Below are positions 136-10,890 of a stretch of DNA of 12,529 bases, in pieces. The notes under the pieces are model-generated. The model was not told the DNA's origin. It worked only from the letters and a program-made list of their open reading frames with translations, and did not search any database. The position numbers and the translations under genes are program-made. This stretch comes from a virus (taxonomy: Duplodnaviria; Heunggongvirae; Uroviricota; Caudoviricetes), in the IMG/VR virus record IMGVR_UViG_2671180699_000002. One strand, 5' to 3'. The first letter of the stretch is position 1. Each line of letters starts with the position of its first letter.

Positions 136-1185
136 TTAGGCCAGCACACCAATTGCCAGCGCGTGATCGATAAATCGAAAAATCAGCTCCAGTTGGGAGC
201 CATACTTCTCTTCAAATGCCACGGTATCCGTATGCAGTTCGTCGTGATGCTTTCTGCATAAAGGCAACACAAAAAGATCATGTGCTTTGGTTCCCATTCC
301 GCCCTGCCCGTGACCAATCAGATGATGCGGATCGTCGGCTGGCATACCGCAGCAAGCACACGGCTGTGTCTTCACCCAGCGAGTGTATTTCTCCTTAACC
401 CAGCGGCGACGTTTAGGTAGCTTCATGAAAGATTCCGGAGACTCAGGATCAACGGTGATGCTTACCACCGTCCTTTCCTGTAGTGGGTGTTGTTCCTGGT
501 GGGCGTGAGGCAACAGTGCAAGATTTTTTGTGCGCTGTTTCAATATGCTGGTGGCGGTCTGCTCTCCCGGTACGATGTCGCTTTCGCGGTACATTGAGCG
601 GATTTTTTCCGCTGGTAATCCCAGCGAGCGACGTAATACCGCTTCAGGTAGCGCATCCGCCACCTGATTTCGGACCGCCCACCAGGATAATTCAGCCAGA
701 GATAATTCACGCTCCTGCGTACCGCTTATTGCGTGACCGATGACGTCAATCATCCATGCTGACAGGTTTTGATGAGCAAGTTGCTCGAGTGATTCGGATG
801 TCTGGTCACGCAGCTGGTTGTCGCAGTGCCAGCACAACACCATTGCGCCGGTACCATAACGGTGAATGACGGTTTCACTGTGGTGATAATCGCCGTGTGG
901 CCACTGGCAGGATTTAATATGGCGCAACAGCCAGTCAGACAATGCACCAGCACCACCAGCAGCACGAATCACCCGTGCGTTACTGAAAAACGGCAGCAAT
1001 GTTTTGTCTTCCACCAGCGGCTGGCGAACGGCAGGAACGACCCCGGACGGCAGATTACGCATGCTTTTCGGTTCCGGCTCCACCAGTACCCGGGTATTGT
1101 GGAATACCGGCATGGATTCACGGCCCGGCTTAACGATCACCACCCCGAGTTCCGGTACCAGAACAGGTCGAAGTAATACCCGCAC
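136..1185 (-). CDS. ydfU: YdfU-like prophage protein, 349 aa, with Cys/His-rich C-terminal region (DUF968-type, possible HNH-like nuclease)
   Basis: Long minus-strand ORF with GTG start at 1185..1183 preceded by GGAGG (SD) 4 nt upstream; stop TAA at 138..136. C-terminal CACCG...HH...CRKHH cluster suggests metal binding. The 349-aa length and position beside rem/hok match my recollection of K-12 Qin ydfU (not verified by alignment). Confidence 0.8.
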   Translation of the reverse strand: MRVLLRPVLVPELGVVIVKPGRESMPVFHNTRVLVEPEPKSMRNLPSGVVPAVRQPLVEDKTLLPFFSNARVIRAAGGAGALSDWLLRHIKSCQWPHGDYHHSETVIHRYGTGAMVLCWHCDNQLRDQTSESLEQLAHQNLSAWMIDVIGHAISGTQERELSLAELSWWAVRNQVADALPEAVLRRSLGLPAEKIRSMYRESDIVPGEQTATSILKQRTKNLALLPHAHQEQHPLQERTVVSITVDPESPESFMKLPKRRRWVKEKYTRWVKTQPCACCGMPADDPHHLIGHGQGGMGTKAHDLFVLPLCRKHHDELHTDTVAFEEKYGSQLELIFRFIDHALAIGVLA

Positions 1186-1632: not shown

Positions 1633-1788
1633 TTACTCCTCAGGTTCGTAAGCTGTGAAGACAGCGACCTCCGTCTGGCCGGTTCGGATTCGTACCTCGC
1701 AGAGGTCTTTCCTCGTTACCAGTGCCGTCACTATGACGGTTAAACAGATGACGATCAGGGCGATTAACATCGCCTTTTGCTGCTTCAT
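1633..1788 (-). CDS. hokD: Hok-family type I toxin (small membrane-depolarising peptide), 51 aa
   Basis: Hand translation of the minus strand gives MKQQKAMLIALIVICLTVIVTALVTRKDLCEVRIRTGQTEVAVFTAYEPEE, which matches my recollection of E. coli HokD/RelF. ATG at 1788..1786, TAA at 1635..1633, SD AAGGAG about 10 nt upstream. The ORF is under 60 aa and so absent from the supplied track. Confidence 0.93.
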   Translation of the reverse strand: MKQQKAMLIALIVICLTVIVTALVTRKDLCEVRIRTGQTEVAVFTAYEPEE

Positions 1789-3154: not shown

Positions 3155-3511
3155 TTATTCAGTTCTGGATTTTGTCGCCCTGCGTATCCGCGCTTTCGCG
3201 TTACGCTCAATCTGAATTAGCTTTTCTATATTTTTTCGCCTTTCCCGCTCCTCCTGACGCAAGAGCCTTACATCATCTGCCAGTCTGGTTTCTCTTTTCG
3301 CCACAGAGAGCATCCAGTCAAATGGCTCCACAACTGCACCGCAGATTTTACAGCGGACCTGACGCTCTTTTTCGTCAACCCGGACAGAGGCGTGATGACA
3401 ATATGGTCTTTCCGATGGCTCATAAAGAAAATTAACCTGATTACGAGGGTCATCCTCTTTTACCGGAAATAAAACGATATTGCTTAACTCATCCTCTGGT
3501 TTTATTTCCAT
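3155..3511 (-). CDS. Hypothetical protein, 118 aa, with Zn-ribbon-like Cys/His motif and basic coiled-coil C-terminus
   Basis: ATG at 3511..3509 preceded by AAGGAGAGGAG. An alternative GTG start at 3568 (137 aa) also has an AGGAGG about 11 nt upstream. Motif YCHH...CKICG; C-terminal R/E/K-rich helix. Confidence 0.65.
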   Translation of the reverse strand: MEIKPEDELSNIVLFPVKEDDPRNQVNFLYEPSERPYCHHASVRVDEKERQVRCKICGAVVEPFDWMLSVAKRETRLADDVRLLRQEERERRKNIEKLIQIERNAKARIRRATKSRTE

Positions 3512-3568
3512 GCTCCTCTCCTTTGATGCGAATGCCAGCGGTAATTGAAGCCTGATAGCTAATTTCAC

Positions 3569-3991
3569 TCACAGTACCGCCTCCTGAAAATTACCCTGAT
3601 AGAAAGCCAGTACACGCTGCATAGCTTCACTCTTCCGGCACTCGCGACAGATTATGTTTAGGCGACTGTCGTAGCGACGTATTTCTCCGTCAGGTGATGA
3701 CCAGATAAGGTCCGGATCAACCACAGCAGGTTTCTTCACCTTTGCCCTCGAGAGTTTTTTGCGGGCGTTTTGCCAGTCCTTACGCGCCTGTTCAGAGGGG
3801 AATAACCCGTAGCCGGAGTTGTATACATCGCCGCTGGCAACCAGCTCTCTTGCGAGAACGCTCATCAGATATCTTGTCGCACCTGTCTTGACTTCCAGTT
3901 GCCGTAACGTCTCACGCCCACTCTGGCGTACGAGTTCAACAACCTGCCCTTTAATTTTTTCTCGCTCTTCTTGTGTAAAAACTTTTGCCAC
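3569..3991 (-). CDS. Hypothetical protein, 140 aa, with probable N-terminal winged-helix/HTH DNA-binding region
   Basis: GTG start at 3991..3989 with AGGAGGG 4-5 nt upstream; stop TGA at 3571..3569. Sits immediately downstream of the O-like gene, where a helicase loader is normally found, but is too short and has no Walker motif. Confidence 0.7.
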   Translation of the reverse strand: MAKVFTQEEREKIKGQVVELVRQSGRETLRQLEVKTGATRYLMSVLARELVASGDVYNSGYGLFPSEQARKDWQNARKKLSRAKVKKPAVVDPDLIWSSPDGEIRRYDSRLNIICRECRKSEAMQRVLAFYQGNFQEAVL

Positions 3992-4031
3992 AAGCCCTCC
4001 TGAAAATTACCTCATGACCAGAAATCAACAC

Positions 4032-5102
4032 TTACCCCCTGAAGCCCGGTGGAATTTCGGTATCCGGTTCAGAAATATGATTCACACAACGCTGGTTGTT
4101 CGTGCCGCTTACCGGGAGCAACCAGGGGTTCTCAAAATTCCGGTCCGGTCCAAAAAACGTCGTCGCTCGCTGAACAAATTCCGTTCCCGTTTTCCCGGTA
4201 GCCGCCAAGTATCTTGCGTAACGCCTCACGCCATCCAGCATGGCCTCTGGTGGCACCCCCTCGCGTAATCTGGCCTTCCAGGCACTGAAAGCGGATTTCT
4301 TCGGGTTTGCTCCGGCACGCAACGGGTACTCCCGCCAGACCTGTTCGAACACATCCGGATAATCCACTCGTCCCACAGACAGCCCGGTGTTTTCCGGGAC
4401 TACCCGATCGGCTTCCCGCTGAATGGCGGAATCGGCTTCAGGCTGCTGCAGTTGGTGTGATTGCTCCGGCCTTGGGGTCATCACCTGCTGCACAGCGCCC
4501 GAATCGGCTTTCAGCGCATACGCTGAATCGGCTTCCGGTGTCGTGCCTGCTGGCTGACCAGGATTGACGGTCTGAACATCCCCTGCCTGGTTCGTGGCGT
4601 TTTTTACGCCATGGACCATAGTGTTTTGATCTTCTTGATCTGTATCTTTATCTGTATCTTTATCTGTCGTGACTCGTCGTGACATGTGCGTGACATTTCG
4701 TGACGCGCCGTGACAATCGCCATTTTGTTCCCGCTTTCTTTCCCTCTCTCGCTGCGCCCTCTTGCGCTCTGCCGGAGATTTTGCGGTTTGCGAAATATTG
4801 CCGTTGTCCTCTTTCAGCACCTGGCGTTTTTCCCATCCAGTGATTAAATCACCATCAAGTACCCGCCCCTGCATCGTCTGCAAAATTGAATCAATTACCT
4901 CTTCTGTCACGTCGAGCGCACTTGCCAAATCTTCTGTCGTGACATCAATGTGACCTCGCGTGACATTTCGTGACGCGCTCACCAGGAGGTGGATATACAC
5001 TGCCATCACTGTTGCAATTGGCTGCCCTGACACCCTGGCAATTGTTCGCCACTTAGGGTCATTTGGCATGTCATGCCATAATCTGAGCCAGGCGTTAGCC
5101 AT
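4032..5102 (-). CDS. Phage replication initiation protein (lambda O-like replisome organiser) containing the probable origin
   Basis: ATG at 5102..5100 with GAGGTGAGT SD (the track ORF starts 2 codons earlier at a GTG). Position after cro/cII; iteron-like CGTGAC repeats and an AT-rich tandem repeat lie inside the coding sequence; acidic, repetitive mid-protein linker (DKDTDKDTD). Confidence 0.85.
   Translation of the reverse strand: MANAWLRLWHDMPNDPKWRTIARVSGQPIATVMAVYIHLLVSASRNVTRGHIDVTTEDLASALDVTEEVIDSILQTMQGRVLDGDLITGWEKRQVLKEDNGNISQTAKSPAERKRAQRERERKREQNGDCHGASRNVTHMSRRVTTDKDTDKDTDQEDQNTMVHGVKNATNQAGDVQTVNPGQPAGTTPEADSAYALKADSGAVQQVMTPRPEQSHQLQQPEADSAIQREADRVVPENTGLSVGRVDYPDVFEQVWREYPLRAGANPKKSAFSAWKARLREGVPPEAMLDGVRRYARYLAATGKTGTEFVQRATTFFGPDRNFENPWLLPVSGTNNQRCVNHISEPDTEIPPGFRG
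4637..4672. repeat. AT-rich tandem repeat, 12-bp unit ATCTGTATCTTT (2 full copies plus a partial third) inside the O-like gene
   Basis: Direct inspection of 4637-4672; encodes the DKDTDKDTD linker; immediately adjacent to iteron cluster A. Confidence 0.85.
4668..4714. repeat. Iteron cluster A: five direct CGTGAC repeats spaced 10-11 bp (candidate ori)
   Basis: CGTGAC begins at 4668, 4678, 4689, 4699 and 4709. One-helical-turn phasing inside the initiator gene, as in lambda ori. Confidence 0.75.
4938..4978. repeat. Iteron cluster B: four (C/T)GTGAC repeats spaced 10-11 bp, including a 21-bp exact copy of part of cluster A
   Basis: Repeats begin at 4938, 4949, 4959 and 4969. GCGTGACATTTCGTGACGCGC is identical at 4688-4708 and 4958-4978. 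Confidence 0.7.
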
Positions 5103-5173
5103 ACTCACCTCTTCTGATACCGAATCTTTTTACTCACGAGTTGCCGGAAGCGATTCGATATGGCTATTGTCAG

Positions 5174-5599
5174 TCAATGTACTGCCACAGCATTTCCTGC
5201 CGGGCCACCACGGTTCATCTGATTGAAACCGGCGATTGCCACTGCGACAAAATCATCAGCGTCTCTCACCAGTCGCTCCCGCGTCTCCACCAGCTCCCGA
5301 AAATAAGCTGAACTGTGGCTGCGCATTCTGGCCACCAGCAAAGGTGGCATTGCCTTTTCGATCGCTGGTAACAACGCCTGAATTTTTTCAACTGCATCAG
5401 GGGTGTCTTTCTCTACCCAGCGGAAAATTTTCTGGGTATTGCGAGCCAGGGCTTCCGGATGGCTGTCGTCATACAGTTCCGGGAACGTCATTCCCAGCTC
5501 GAAATACGCTTTGGTAATTTTCGCAGCCGGTACTTTTTCGCCGTCCGGATGCGCCCAGGCATTCATCGCCATGCGGATGTGTTCATGCTTGATTTTCAT
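5174..5599 (-). CDS. CII-like / YdaT-family regulatory protein, 141 aa
   Basis: ATG at 5599..5597 overlaps the TGA of the cro-like gene (ATGA). N-terminus MKIKHEHI resembles my recollection of Rac YdaT, recalled as a functional CII analogue. Position cro - cII-like - O-like. Confidence 0.75.
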   Translation of the reverse strand: MKIKHEHIRMAMNAWAHPDGEKVPAAKITKAYFELGMTFPELYDDSHPEALARNTQKIFRWVEKDTPDAVEKIQALLPAIEKAMPPLLVARMRSHSSAYFRELVETRERLVRDADDFVAVAIAGFNQMNRGGPAGNAVAVH

Positions 5600-5826
5600 G
5601 AATCCCCCCCTTGGTTAGAAGGCGGATTATGATCAGAACCGGGAATGACAACCGTCGGTATGTGTAACTCATATTTGAGCGCCCCGGCAGTGACTGCCTG
5701 AATTAGCAACGCCCATTTCCACGGAACCTCTTCCCCCCACATGCTGACTGTGGTTTTTGACGTTCCTAGAGCTGCGGCTGTTTTAACAACTCCGCCAAAA
5801 TAGCCTAATACTTCTGATTTTTTCAT
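5596..5826 (-). CDS. Cro-like HTH repressor (DicC/YdaS family), 76 aa from ATG 5826
   Basis: Divergent from the CI-like gene. GGAG precedes ATG 5826; an alternative ATG at 5838 would add MERL. The pattern resembles DicC as I recall it, but is not identical. Confidence 0.8.
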   Translation of the reverse strand: MKKSEVLGYFGGVVKTAAALGTSKTTVSMWGEEVPWKWALLIQAVTAGALKYELHIPTVVIPGSDHNPPSNQGGDS

Positions 5827-5838
5827 GAGTCGCTCCAT

Positions 5839-5917
5839 AAAACTGAACGTCAAAAGTTTAATAATCAAAACCAAAGAAAGTCAAGAAACAAAACCATCTG
5901 TGTTTTAAAATCAAAAC
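5839..5917. promoter_or_regulatory. Divergent immunity switch (PR-like and PRM-like promoters with candidate operators)
   Basis: Two 16-bp near-identical sites, GTTTAATAATCAAAAC (5856-5871) and GTTTTAAAATCAAAAC (5902-5917), each with inverted GTTT(T)/AAAAC half-sites. A minus-strand TTGACT (5884..5879) and TATTAA (5863..5858) pair is a candidate PR. A plus-strand TAAAAT (5906-5911) sits 6 nt before the cI ATG, which has no SD. Confidence 0.55.
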
Positions 5918-6556
5918 ATGAGCAAGCAAACTATATCTGAACGCATAACCCAACGTATGCATGCGCTAAACCTGAAAGGCAAAGACCTTGTCAATGGCAC
6001 TGGCGCATCAAAAGGCTCCGTAAGTCAATGGATGAACGGTGGAGGAGCGCCGTCCTCGCGTTACATAAGTTCACTGGCAAAAATATTGAAAGTAAACGAA
6101 AATTGGCTTCTTAATGGAGGAGAGTTAAATACAGGTGATTCGCTTGATCTATCTTTACCGCCGATAAAAACGGTTCCGCTACTATCACTTCAGCAGGCAG
6201 CAAGCTGGAGTGATTATATGAAAAATTCCTCAATAACCTCTTGTGTGCAGCTTGTCGGAGAAATCCCGGTCAATACCTTTGCAGTTGTTCTAGAGAGTGA
6301 CAGTATGTCAACATCTGGTGGGGGAGTTTCCATCCCAAATGGTTCAACAGTTTTTGTTGATCCCGATCGAACCGTACAACCAGGAAATATTGTCCTTGCC
6401 TTACCCAAAGGGACCACAACACCTGTCATTCGTAAACTGGAGATAGAAGGGCCGGATATTCTTTTAGTCCCCACGAATCCTCGCTACCCTTCAATTATGC
6501 TGGATGATCTATCTTGCATATTGGGCGTATGCTTTAAAATTCAACAAGATATTTAA
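5918..6556 (+). CDS. CI-like prophage repressor: N-terminal HTH plus C-terminal S24 (LexA-like) autopeptidase domain, 212 aa
   Basis: N-terminal HTH region (KGKDLVNGTGASKGSVSQWMNG); C-terminal ESDSMS serine motif and downstream RKLE lysine, typical of LexA/CI/UmuD self-cleaving proteins. Divergent from the cro-like gene. Confidence 0.9.
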   Translation: MSKQTISERITQRMHALNLKGKDLVNGTGASKGSVSQWMNGGGAPSSRYISSLAKILKVNENWLLNGGELNTGDSLDLSLPPIKTVPLLSLQQAASWSDYMKNSSITSCVQLVGEIPVNTFAVVLESDSMSTSGGGVSIPNGSTVFVDPDRTVQPGNIVLALPKGTTTPVIRKLEIEGPDILLVPTNPRYPSIMLDDLSCILGVCFKIQQDI

Positions 6557-8326: not shown

Positions 8327-8418
8327 AACAGTTCCGTAATAAATATCCGGTTTCATTCTTATATGCCAGCAATGGCAGGGATTTGTTCATCCTTAAATCT
8401 GTCATGAGGTTAAAACAA

Positions 8419-10890
8419 ATGAGTAAAGTCTTTATTTGCGCCGCTATTCCTGACGAACTGGCAACAAGGGAAGAAGGCGCTGTGGCTGTAGCCACAGCCA
8501 TTGAAGCTGGCGACGAACGCCGTGCTCGAGCAAAATTTCACTGGCAATTCCTGGAACATTATCCGGCTGCTCAGGACTGCGCTTATAAATTTATTGTCTG
8601 CGAGGATAAACCTGGCATACCCCGCCCTGCCCTCGATTCATGGGATGCTGAATATATGCAGGAAAACCGCTGGGATGAGGAGTCTGCTTCTTTTGTCCCG
8701 GTTGAGACTGAATCCGATCCGATGAACGTCACTTTTGACAAGCTGGCCCCTGAAGTACAGAACGCTGTCATGGTTAAGTTCGACACATGTGAAAACATCA
8801 CCGTTGATATGGTTATTAGCGCACAGGAATTGTTGCAGGAAGACATGGCAACATTCGACGGACATATCGTTGAAGCGTTGATGAAAATGCCAGAAGTTAA
8901 CGCCATGTATCCGGAGCTTAAGTTGCACGCCATTGGGTGGGTTAAGCATAAATGTATTCCTGGTGCTAAATGGCCCGAAATTCAGGCAGAGATGCGCATC
9001 TGGAAAAAACGTCGCGAAGGTGAACGCAAGGAAACCGGAAAATACACGTCTGTTGTTGATCTCGCCCGCGCCAGAGCCAATCAACAGTACACTGAAAATT
9101 CAACAGGAAAAATCAGCCCGGTCATTGCTGCCATTCATCGCGAATACAAGCAGACATGGAAAACACTGGATGACGAACTGGCCTACGCTCTCTGGCCTGG
9201 TGATGTGGATGCCGGAAACATTGACGGCAGCATCCATCGCTGGGCAAAAAATGAAGTTATCGACAACGACCGCGAAGACTGGAAGCGTATCTCGGCATCA
9301 ATGCGCAAACAGCCTGATGCCCTTCGCTACGACCGCCAAACTATTTTTGGCCTTGTCCGTGAGCGTCCGATCGACATTCACAAAGATCCCGTAGCACTGA
9401 ACAAATATATCTGCGAATACCTGACGACAAAGGGCGTGTTTGAGAATGAAGAAACAGACCTGGGCACTGTTGATGTTCTCCAGTCATCAGAAACACAAAC
9501 TGATGCAGTGGAAACTGAGGTATCTGATATCCCAAAAAATGAAACCGCGCCGGAAGCTGAACCATCTGTAGAGCGTGAGGGGCCGTTCTATTTCCTCTTC
9601 GCAGATAAGGACGGAGAAAAATACGGTCGCGCAAACAAACTTTCTGGTCTGGATAAGGCACTGGCTGCTGGCGCCACTGAAATCACAAAAGAAGAATATT
9701 TTGCCCGAAAAAATGGCACATACACGGGCTTACCGCAAAATGTAGATACCGCTGAAGATTCAGAACAACCAGAGCCGATAAAAGTTACCGCTGACGAAGT
9801 AAACAAAATTATGCAGGCAGCCAATATCATCCAGCCTGACGCCGATAAGTTGCTTGCTGCATCACGTGGTGAATTTGTTGAAGGGATTAGTGACCCGAAT
9901 GATCCGAAATGGGTTAAGGGGATCCAGACCCGCGATTCTGTGAACCAGAACCAGCATGAATCGGAACGGAACTACCAAAAAGCGGAACAAAACAGCCCAA
10001 ATGCGTTACAAAACGAGCCAGAAACGAAACAGCCTGAATCAGTGGCGCAACAGGAAGTGGAAAAAGTCTGCACCGCCTGCGGTCAGACCGGCGGCGGCAA
10101 CTGCCCTGATTGTGGCGCGGTAATGGGCGACGCAACATACCAGGAAACATTCGATGAAGAGTATCAGATTGAAGTTCAGGAAGATGATCCGGAGGAAATG
10201 GAAGGCGCTGAACATCCACACAAGGAGAACACTGGCGGCAATCAGCATCACGATAGCGATAATGAAACTGGCGAGACGGCAGATCACTCAATTAAGGTGA
10301 ACGGTCATCAAGAAATCACATCCACCAGCAGGACGTGTGACCATCTAATGATCGACCTTGAAACCATGGGAAAAAATCCTGATGCCCCGATCATCTCAAT
10401 AGGTGCAATATTTTTCGATCCGCAAACCGGAGATATGGGACCGGAATTTAGTAAGACTATCGATCTGGAAACTGCTGGCGGAGTCATTGATCGGGACACC
10501 ATTAAATGGTGGCTTAAGCAATCACGCGAAGCGCAATCTGCCATTATGACCGATGAAATCCCGTTAGATGATGCACTGTTACAATTGTGGGAATTTATCG
10601 ACGAAAACTCCGGTGAATTTTTTGTTCAGGTCTGGGGAAATGGAGCCAACTTCGACAACACGATTTTGCGCCGTTCATACGAACGGCAGGGGATCCCCTG
10701 CCCGTGGCGTTACTACAACGATCGCGATGTACGCACAATCGTTGAGCTGGGGAAAGCCATAGACTTCGATGCCAGAACGGCTATTCCATTCGAAGGTGAG
10801 CGCCATAATGCACTTGATGACGCCCGTTACCAGGCAAAATACGTTTCAGTTATCTGGCAAAAACTGATCCCGAGTCAGGCTGATTCTTAA
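8419..10890 (+). CDS. Large multi-domain protein, 823 aa: uncharacterised N-terminal region, acidic linker, CxxC...CxxC zinc-ribbon-like motif, C-terminal DEDDh (DnaQ-like) 3'-5' exonuclease domain
   Basis: ATG at 8419 with GAGG 9 nt upstream (the track ORF begins at an upstream TTG, 8383). C-terminal motifs: Exo I IDLETMG, Exo II GNGANFDNT, Exo III ERHNALDDARYQ. Zinc-ribbon-like CTACGQTGGGNCPDCG. Occupies the exo/recE position next to xis-int. Confidence 0.88.
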   Translation: MSKVFICAAIPDELATREEGAVAVATAIEAGDERRARAKFHWQFLEHYPAAQDCAYKFIVCEDKPGIPRPALDSWDAEYMQENRWDEESASFVPVETESDPMNVTFDKLAPEVQNAVMVKFDTCENITVDMVISAQELLQEDMATFDGHIVEALMKMPEVNAMYPELKLHAIGWVKHKCIPGAKWPEIQAEMRIWKKRREGERKETGKYTSVVDLARARANQQYTENSTGKISPVIAAIHREYKQTWKTLDDELAYALWPGDVDAGNIDGSIHRWAKNEVIDNDREDWKRISASMRKQPDALRYDRQTIFGLVRERPIDIHKDPVALNKYICEYLTTKGVFENEETDLGTVDVLQSSETQTDAVETEVSDIPKNETAPEAEPSVEREGPFYFLFADKDGEKYGRANKLSGLDKALAAGATEITKEEYFARKNGTYTGLPQNVDTAEDSEQPEPIKVTADEVNKIMQAANIIQPDADKLLAASRGEFVEGISDPNDPKWVKGIQTRDSVNQNQHESERNYQKAEQNSPNALQNEPETKQPESVAQQEVEKVCTACGQTGGGNCPDCGAVMGDATYQETFDEEYQIEVQEDDPEEMEGAEHPHKENTGGNQHHDSDNETGETADHSIKVNGHQEITSTSRTCDHLMIDLETMGKNPDAPIISIGAIFFDPQTGDMGPEFSKTIDLETAGGVIDRDTIKWWLKQSREAQSAIMTDEIPLDDALLQLWEFIDENSGEFFVQVWGNGANFDNTILRRSYERQGIPCPWRYYNDRDVRTIVELGKAIDFDARTAIPFEGERHNALDDARYQAKYVSVIWQKLIPSQADS

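Follow-up and report, generated by a model that had tools for sequence, protein, structure and literature searches.

The replication initiator gene of lambdoid phages is normally followed by a gene for a helicase loader of the P or DnaC type, as in the O-P-Ren module of lambda and the YdaU-YdaV module of the Rac prophage of Escherichia coli K-12. A 2025 paper in Genome Res (PMC12315714) described phage LLS, whose replication module is one gene, and classed 34 of 314 lambdoid phages as initiator-only, their replication being "not yet understood." A module of this kind is present in the DNA analyzed here, a stretch of 12,529 nucleotides (nt) from the IMG/VR virus record IMGVR_UViG_2671180699_000002 (Caudoviricetes), which is called the window in the following. 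The window corresponds to the early region of a lambdoid prophage of E. coli, and its minus strand holds the rightward operon. Its initiator ends in a peptide that resembles the C terminus of the host protein DnaT, and no loader gene follows. With moderate confidence, based on sequence comparison, this is read as a single-initiator module whose DnaT-like tail recruits complexes of DnaB with a DnaC-type loader, here host DnaC, and in which the two small proteins encoded downstream would not be loaders.

Several described systems share part of this arrangement. Rac YdaU ends in the same DnaT-type tail (...QVNTVSLPDSAIPPGFRG / ...RQVNTVSLPDSAIPPGFRG), has the same flanking cro (YdaS-type) and cII (YdaT-type) genes, and occupies the same operon position. 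It differs in its DUF1376 N-terminal domain (N-domain) and its C-terminal domain (C-domain), and YdaV, about 50% identical to host DnaC and absent from the window, starts 7 nt after it. Host DnaT also carries the tail at its extreme C terminus, where it is predicted to be flexible, and its gene lies immediately upstream of dnaC; the window initiator has a winged-helix domain instead of the DnaT N-terminal domain, the PriB linker, and PF17948. The lambda module is alike in its position after cro and cII, in the downstream Ren homologue, and in the candidate iterons and A+T-rich tract inside the initiator gene. It is unlike the window in that the window initiator is not an O homologue and no P is present; relatives that are paired with P carry a ...LDCxxW..DD tail.

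The LLS-like loaderless phages (PMC12315714) likewise have an initiator gene only, and LLS O ends in a DnaT-type tail, but the LLS initiator is of the true O type and a methyltransferase gene comes next instead of DUF977. The initiators of DopC-DopE and of O157 prophages annotated with a "DnaT-like ssDNA-binding domain" (ssDNA, single-stranded DNA) also borrow part of DnaT, and the N-domain of the O157 type is 85% identical to that of the window. These initiators borrow PF17948 without the tail and pair with a P-like loader, whereas the window initiator has the tail without PF17948 and no loader. No significant sequence or fold match was found to the iteron replication proteins pSC101 RepA, R6K pi, and RK2 TrfA, to SPP1 G38P, or to Bacillus subtilis DnaD. 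SPP1 encodes its own loader and helicase.

Absence of a helicase loader

The six frames of the window were scanned from stop to stop (frames of at least 50 amino acids [aa]) for the Walker A pattern [GA]xxxxGK[ST], and none was found. Searches with phmmer, seeded with E. coli DnaC, YdaV, two other phage DnaC-like proteins, lambda P, two P-like proteins, and E. coli DnaB, gave zero matches in the window at E ≤ 10. There is no DnaC/IstB-type AAA+ loader directly 3' of the initiator in the window and no P-type loader (PF06992) downstream of it, lambda P and P-like proteins having no match in the window or in phage Tritos.

Annotated E. coli prophages share the 2.9-kb replication segment at 99.4% identity, and 697 of 5,426 complete E. 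coli genomes contain it at ≥80% coverage. The module is also found in the sequenced phages Tritos, Evi, and vB_EcoS-640R1. The complete Tritos genome (46 kb), which is 97.7% identical to the window across cII-initiator-DUF977, was negative in the same phmmer and Walker A scans, its only meaningful Walker A motif being that of the terminase; the absence of a loader is therefore not an artefact of the window edge. No loader or helicase is annotated anywhere in Tritos or in the E. coli FDAARGOS_536 prophage (99.4% identical). The first-pass annotation, made from the letters of the window alone, had stated that the module apparently lacks a recognizable helicase loader. The searches bear this out in the window, in the whole Tritos genome, and in the FDAARGOS_536 prophage annotation, and confirm that the loader gene is truly missing from this prophage module.

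Tritos was plaque-purified on MG1655 hsdR-, yielded confluent lysis on amplification, and was examined by electron microscopy. Since a phage with the same module forms plaques, the loaderless arrangement is functional. LLS, which is loaderless independently of the window module, was grown on E. coli K-12.

DnaT-type tail of the initiator

Aligned with the 25 C-terminal residues of E. coli DnaT, the C-terminal tail of the initiator shows 60% identity (pairwise BLASTP E 1e-7), with 14 of 19 residues identical and both peptides at the extreme C terminus. It covers positions 156 to 179 of the 179 positions of the NCBIfam DnaT profile and matches the DnaT chains 6aep, 2ru8, and 9zbt in the PDB. The tail is predicted to be disordered or flexible by AlphaFold2 (AF2). 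The rest of DnaT is missing from the initiator: PF17948, the three-helix ssDNA-binding domain, has no match in it, the N-terminal oligomerization domain and the acidic PriB-binding linker are not present, BLASTP and phmmer align the last 22 to 25 residues alone, and the full-length NCBIfam profile NF002770 reaches 18 bits, the cut-off being 201. Two relatives that share the window N-domain (P0057 and P0099) do carry PF17948. In the host, dnaT ends in the tail and dnaC starts 2 nt later.

Among 68 unique tails, the positions outside the search pattern are still DnaT-like (R 60%, D 50%, N 50%, I/V 66%, and D 74%). The tail codons differ synonymously between loaderless loci, indicating selection on the tail peptide. 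In the literature searched, no paper was found that describes the DnaT tail as a motif of its own in phage initiators or that connects it with loaderless modules. Phage initiators with the DnaT three-helix domain were already noted in 2017 (DopC), and the window sequence itself is common and already annotated.

Tail type and loader type among relatives

Scans of IMG/VR for open reading frames (ORFs) ending in IPPGFRG-stop and IP[DE]GFRG-stop gave at least 238 ORFs; these loci come from E. coli prophages with much redundancy among them, the counts therefore do not represent independent events, and the fractions of 238 apply among the matches listed. The tail is found on at least six unrelated initiator architectures, K-12 Rac YdaU included, and always at the extreme C terminus. 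They comprise the O-like helix-turn-helix (HTH) type with a Phg_2220_C-like C-domain, the family of the window initiator (defined by its C-terminal domain X, described below), the YdaU family, the N-domain with a full DnaT C-terminal domain, the LLS type, and others. The LLS initiator, of the O type (HTH_36 plus Phg_2220_C), ends in ...DTKIPEGFRG.

A DnaC-like ORF lies directly downstream of 66 of the 238 tail-bearing ORFs, starting 6 nt past the initiator stop in every junction read. No DnaC-, P-, or DnaB-like ORF is present in 171 loci, for which the median length of DNA is 10.6 kb. A single locus contains a P-like ORF at another position. The loader slot itself is free of P-like and DnaB-like genes throughout (0/238). 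In the reverse test, the tail was present on all 77 initiators located upstream of a YdaV-like DnaC and on none of the 80 located upstream of P-like loaders, 79 of which end in FEA[LM]DC[PT]DW.DD. The DnaC-like proteins adjacent to the tail are full length, with about 49% identity to host DnaC over residues 1 to 241; those beside other tails are 25 to 35% identical and have no N-terminal match.

Mosaic relatives separate the tail from the folded domains. The window N-domain occurs with a genuine DnaT three-helix domain and the tail ...FEALDCPDWCDD; the next gene is lambda-P-like and overlaps the initiator gene. Domain X occurs in Serratia with a ...LDCEEW...DDE tail followed by a P-like gene, elsewhere with a DnaT-type tail followed by a DnaC-like ATPase (P0042 and P0079), and in other Enterobacteriaceae with a third tail, ...SGFSEQDYGxxDCNW, followed by a distant DnaC-like protein and a DnaB-like helicase. 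In such enterobacterial DnaC-plus-DnaB modules, the DnaC-like protein is 30 to 34% identical to host DnaC and a phage DnaB is present. Domain X with a DnaT-type tail and no loader is found in the window, in a Salmonella relative, and in P0034, which has a different N-domain. Among these relatives, the tail thus tracks the kind of loader and not the folded domains of the initiator. A scan of viral DNA for domain X returned 80 near-identical E. coli prophages, and the diversity was supplied by a scan of genome contigs.

The same initiator with the same tail is found both with and without a DnaC-DUF1627 block. The window module might thus be a defective deletion derivative that lost this block from between initiator and DUF977, where otherwise identical initiators have it, and that either does not replicate or relies on the YdaV-like loader of another prophage; a Rac-like ydaV is present in most E. 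coli strains, MG1655 among them. However, Rac ydaV is normally repressed, Tritos forms plaques on MG1655 hsdR-, and LLS grows on K-12. The loaderless form is also the majority among the tail-bearing loci and is present in the 697 genomes, and the tail is under purifying selection in it. A defective module is very unlikely on these grounds.

Other tails and tail contexts were also observed. The tails FEALDC[PT]DW.DD and LDCEEW...DDE, which precede P-like loaders (loci L003-L006 and L315-L394), and the tail ...LPVSGFSEQDYGxxDCNW, which precedes the DnaC-like and DnaB-like pair (L094-L103 and L111), may be partner-specific docking motifs. A complete DnaT C-terminal domain (three-helix domain plus tail) is present on a phage N-domain in loci such as L162 and L171; six of six such loci have no downstream loader gene. 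In a domain X protein encoded by the Pantoea plasmid pAPP145_1 (L101), a DnaT-like motif, ISPPDKSIPDGFTG, lies internally, about 60 residues before the end, and its burial may be due to a frameshift or read-through. In many loaderless loci with an IPEGFRG initiator (L406, L412, and L422), the next gene encodes an N6-adenine methyltransferase or a 136- to 164-aa protein with a winged-helix N terminus and a PerC-like C terminus (PF06069, E 7e-7). These occupy the slot of the DUF977/Ren gene of the window.

On the side of the loader, the allele dnaC1331 encodes DnaC A84Y and blocks PriA/PriB/DnaT-dependent loading. Residues A84, Q81, L85, S86, and A88 of DnaC are at least 70 to 95% conserved in the YdaV-type loaders (42 phage DnaC-like proteins compared), which suggests a shared surface. 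Because much of DnaC is conserved too, this is non-discriminating and was not used as evidence.

Initiator domains and candidate origin

The initiator gene directly follows cro and cII/YdaT, and PGAP names its product "phage replisome organizer." The protein matches PHROG 3729, "replication initiation protein," over its full length (E 2e-256), and 1,545 homologues were found. It was modeled with AF2 twice, first in full length and then for the C terminus. The models and the alignment of homologues divide it into four parts: the N-domain, a linker, domain X, and the tail (Table 1).

The N-domain, which is presumed to be the origin-binding domain, has helices at residues 4 to 13, 18 to 27, 31 to 48, 58 to 65, and 69 to 79 in the AF2 model. 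TIGR01714 (phage_rep_org_N) matches it weakly (15.4 bits, E 0.016, cut-off 49.8), and PHROG 10469, 4880, and 5968, which are DnaD-like and replisome-organizer families, match the initiator at E 7e-10 to 2e-4. A Foldseek search of the PDB with the full-length model returned only generic HTH and winged-HTH matches at E > 1 and was uninformative because of the long disordered linker, the length of which differs among homologues. Domain X has the pattern YPxxFExxWxxYPxRxG...TFFGPDxxF and is a widespread initiator C-domain; it has no Pfam family or solved relative, and fold searches gave weak DnaD-like matches.

Homology to lambda O was considered and rejected, the best BLASTP match (E 0.1) being confined to the low-complexity linker. 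Neither HTH_36 (PF13730) nor Phg_2220_C (PF09524) gave a Pfam match in the window initiator; LLS O, scanned likewise, matches both. The window initiator is thus analogous, not homologous, to lambda O. The label "O-like" that it had received in the first-pass annotation holds for its position and its probable role, in view of the iterons in the gene, but not for homology.

The initiator gene has iterons and an A+T-rich tract inside it, as in a module of the lambda O/P type. The sequence GTCACG occurs 13 times in the window, where 4.85 sites are expected, and 9 of the 13 lie within 4668-4974 (about 300 bp); 13 sites were reached in 1 of 200 shuffles. A 39-nt direct repeat joins the second iteron cluster with 4676-4714. 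By analogy with the lambda ori inside gene O, we infer that the GTCACG iterons and the A+T-rich repeat form a candidate origin. If the N-domain reads the iterons, relatives with another N-domain would be expected to lack the peptide segment that the iterons encode, and this segment is indeed missing from them. No DnaA-box cluster is present at the candidate origin, in which the window differs from the iteron plasmids: 4630-4720 holds 0 near-matches, and the whole window holds 37 against 27 ± 5 expected.

Proposed recruitment of the host helicase

In the proposed mechanism, the N-domain would bind the GTCACG iterons within its own gene, and the A+T-rich repeat next to them would open. The flexible DnaT-type tail would serve as a short docking motif for complexes of DnaB with a loader of the DnaC family. 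In relatives with a YdaV-type DnaC, the tail would engage that phage loader; in the phage of the window, it would bring host DnaB6-DnaC6 to the unwound origin, so that no phage loader would be needed. We infer that the module would thereby depend on host DnaC. Direct recruitment of host DnaB/DnaC by the initiator was one of the options named in the first-pass annotation, and it is now the favored one, with the tail as the candidate element. A broader proposal, also drawn from sequence comparison, is more tentative: the DnaT tail (about 20 residues with an IPPGFRG end) may be the element by which the preprimosome hands over to DnaB6-DnaC6, captured by many lambdoid phages on unrelated initiators to load host DnaB with host DnaC alone.

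Apart from the redundancy of the loci, several points weigh against recruitment by the tail. The loader gene lies next to the tail codons, or overlaps them when it is of the P-like kind; the final tail codons AGGGGG double as the Shine-Dalgarno sequence of the loader. Co-inheritance may therefore partly reflect linkage. Against pure linkage, the tail is kept with synonymous changes where there is no loader and recurs on unrelated initiators. A 2026 paper on the preprimosome assigns the role of possible recruiter to the DnaT N-terminal domain, and DnaC and DnaB are not separable as the direct partner by these data. Finally, DnaT without residues 154 to 179 has a 2- to 3-fold lower affinity for ssDNA, and the tail could therefore act in DNA binding or oligomerization.

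The last point is the basis of a different explanation, in which the tail aids ssDNA binding or cooperative oligomerization at the melted origin and host DnaB-DnaC is recruited otherwise, for example by DnaA or domain X. It draws on the finding that DnaT 84-153 binds dT30 about 2- to 3-fold more weakly and less cooperatively than DnaT 84-179. The weak DnaD-like fold matches of domain X would fit it as well. Iteron plasmids, which replicate with an initiator and host DnaA, DnaB, and DnaC only, offer a precedent. Yet the candidate origin has no DnaA-box cluster. Were the tail a general DNA-binding element, one would not expect every P-linked initiator to lack it and to carry another conserved tail in its place. 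This explanation is considered unlikely.

The tail might also mimic DnaT in docking to PriA or entering the PriA-PriB-DnaT restart primosome, in which case loading would proceed by the host restart pathway, at the origin or at recombination or R-loop intermediates. A 2026 cryo-electron microscopy (cryo-EM) study found that the DnaT C-terminal domain docks on PriA HD2/CTD via a conserved hydrophobic interface, and I, P, P, and F are among the residues of the tail. The growth of LLS is improved by RecBCD/Chi (PMC12315714), which points to recombination-dependent replication, which uses PriA in E. coli. However, the text of the cryo-EM paper does not name the DnaT residues of the interface, and the DnaT site on PriA is exposed only in fork-bound PriA. 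Docking to PriA would also leave unexplained the tie of the tail to YdaV-type DnaC (77/77) and its lack of any tie to P- or DnaB-type modules. It is judged slightly less probable still than a role in ssDNA binding, and recruitment of DnaC-type loader-DnaB complexes by the tail is preferred.

Small proteins downstream of the initiator

The interval flagged in the first-pass annotation, 3569-4031, is made up of the DUF977 ORF (3569-3991) and a 40-nt spacer (3992-4031). The first-pass description of the 140-aa product as winged-helix-like and free of ATPase motifs is correct: it matches Pfam DUF977 (PF06163) over residues 1 to 136 (E 4e-28, 98.5 bits against a cut-off of 22.1), has a winged-helix N terminus followed by the C-terminal motif ECRxSxAMxRVLAxY, and contains no Walker A motif. 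It belongs to PHROG 142, "Ren-like exclusion protein" (E 2e-47), and its C-terminal ECRKSEAMQRVLAFY aligns to lambda Ren ECRQSAAMKRVLAVY, residues 73 to 92 (BLASTP E 4e-7). On these alignments, the protein is a homologue of lambda Ren. At least 120 homologues were listed for it, all of them E. coli sequences of 88 to 96% identity and unfit for a deep alignment.

The second gene had been described as encoding a 118-aa Zn-ribbon protein. That length is correct from ATG 3511, the form that PGAP annotates in the 99.4%-identical prophage, but the ORF extends to 137 aa from its GTG; the Zn-ribbon match is weak (Zn_Ribbon_TF, E 2e-4), and PHROG 1621 matches at E 3e-56.

Either protein had been put forward as a noncanonical helicase loader or adaptor. 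Both are encoded where P or DnaC normally is, and the DUF977 protein has a winged-helix N terminus. Their distribution was examined in those tail-bearing loci that extend 2.5 kb or more downstream; 46 of these encode a phage DnaC and 44 do not. The DUF977/Ren-like gene was present in 37 of the 46 and 37 of the 44, respectively, and the Zn-ribbon gene in 12 and 11. The commonest gene orders were DnaC>DUF1627>DUF977(>ZnR) and DUF977(>ZnR). Since the small genes are equally common with and without DnaC, the window module reflects an absent DnaC-DUF1627 block and not a gained substitute. In addition, lambda encodes P and Ren together, Tritos has no Zn-ribbon gene, and LLS has neither protein, a methyltransferase gene following its O gene. 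The proposal is largely refuted by this distribution; the homology to Ren also speaks against it, and a loader role for either protein is extremely unlikely. The Zn-ribbon protein is an accessory gene product and no loader substitute.

On the minus strand, the DUF977 gene and the Zn-ribbon gene share a 16-nt sequence, GGTAATTTTCAGGAGG, ahead of their start codons (3996-4011 and 3580-3595, respectively), and two relatives have its core, TTTTCAGGAGG, upstream of the Zn-ribbon gene as well. The GTG of the Zn-ribbon gene abuts the DUF977 stop codon (TGAGTG). The 16-nt repeats could be module-junction or translational-coupling sequences.

Other features of the window

The coordinates of all features are given in Table 1. 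Ten N bases at 126-135 adjoin the 3' end of the DUF968 ORF and may hide its true stop codon; the listed ORF 1-261 is artefactual. The RecE equivalog matches only the middle region of the 835-aa exonuclease, the gene of which has no evident RecT or Bet partner next to it. The 2025 Chi paper classed Tritos-type phages as "nuclease only, no anti-RecBCD." The hokD gene of Tritos, homologous to the hok gene of the window, was the top-expressed prophage gene, 3,792-fold above background (PMC9928086).

Table 1. Features of the 12,529-nt window and their coordinates
Feature	Coordinates	Strand	Remarks
DUF968 HNH protein	136-1185	-	
hok (Hok/Gef toxin) gene	1633-1788	-	nin-equivalent region; E 1e-23
DUF7167 gene, then small ORFs		-	downstream of Zn-ribbon ORF
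Zn-ribbon and basic helical protein	3155-3568	-	137 aa from GTG 3568, 118 aa from ATG 3511
140-aa DUF977 protein, lambda Ren homologue	3569-3991	-	GTG start, AGGAGG 6 nt upstream
Intergenic spacer, 40 nt	3992-4031	-	initiator stop to DUF977 gene; carries DUF977 Shine-Dalgarno sequence
Replication initiator	4032-5108	-	358 aa from GTG 5108 (356 aa from ATG 5102)
DnaT-type C-terminal tail, residues 337-358	4035-4100	-	proposed docking peptide for host DnaC/DnaB
C-terminal helical domain X, residues 248-330	4119-4367	-	predicted local distance difference test (pLDDT) ~75-88
Disordered low-complexity linker, residues 83-246	4371-4862	-	pLDDT <50 over 130-246
A+T-rich 3 x 12-bp tandem repeat	4633-4668	-	candidate unwinding element; adjoins iterons
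Candidate origin iterons, five GTCACG	4668-4714	-	spaced 10, 11, 10, 10 bp; in linker-coding DNA
N-terminal helical winged-helix-like domain, residues ~3-82	4863-5102	-	AF2 pLDDT 70-86
Second iteron cluster	4906-4974	-	within N-domain coding DNA; GTCACG at 4906(+), 4938, 4959, 4969(-)
cII/YdaT-like gene	5174-5599	-	YdaT_toxin E 7e-10; PHROG 163 CII-like
cro-like gene	5596-5874	-	P22_Cro E 2e-15
S24-type CI repressor	5918-6556	+	
DUF1391 gene		+	among the plus-strand genes with CI repressor, exonuclease, excisionase, and integrase
835-aa exodeoxyribonuclease VIII-like protein	8383-10890	+	C-terminal Rv2179c-like 3'-5' exonuclease domain, E 1e-66
Excisionase and integrase	integrase 11234 to window end	+	

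Implications for lambdoid phages

Two open questions meet in this module: how the roughly one-tenth of lambdoid phages that encode an initiator only replicate, and how DnaT or the preprimosome contacts DnaB-DnaC, which papers of 2024 and 2026 state to be unknown. A tail common to DnaT and at least six phage initiator families provides a specific and cheaply testable hypothesis for both. Annotation would also benefit: a prophage initiator ending in ...IP[PDE]GFRG would be predicted to depend on DnaC, one with an LDCxxW..DD tail to have a P-type partner, and one with SGFSEQDYGxxDCNW to have a partner of the DnaC-plus-DnaB type. If the broader proposal on the DnaT tail is correct, the host dnaT-dnaC operon and the phage modules of the ydaU-ydaV type may share an origin, and the tail would account for the whole class of initiator-only lambdoid phages.

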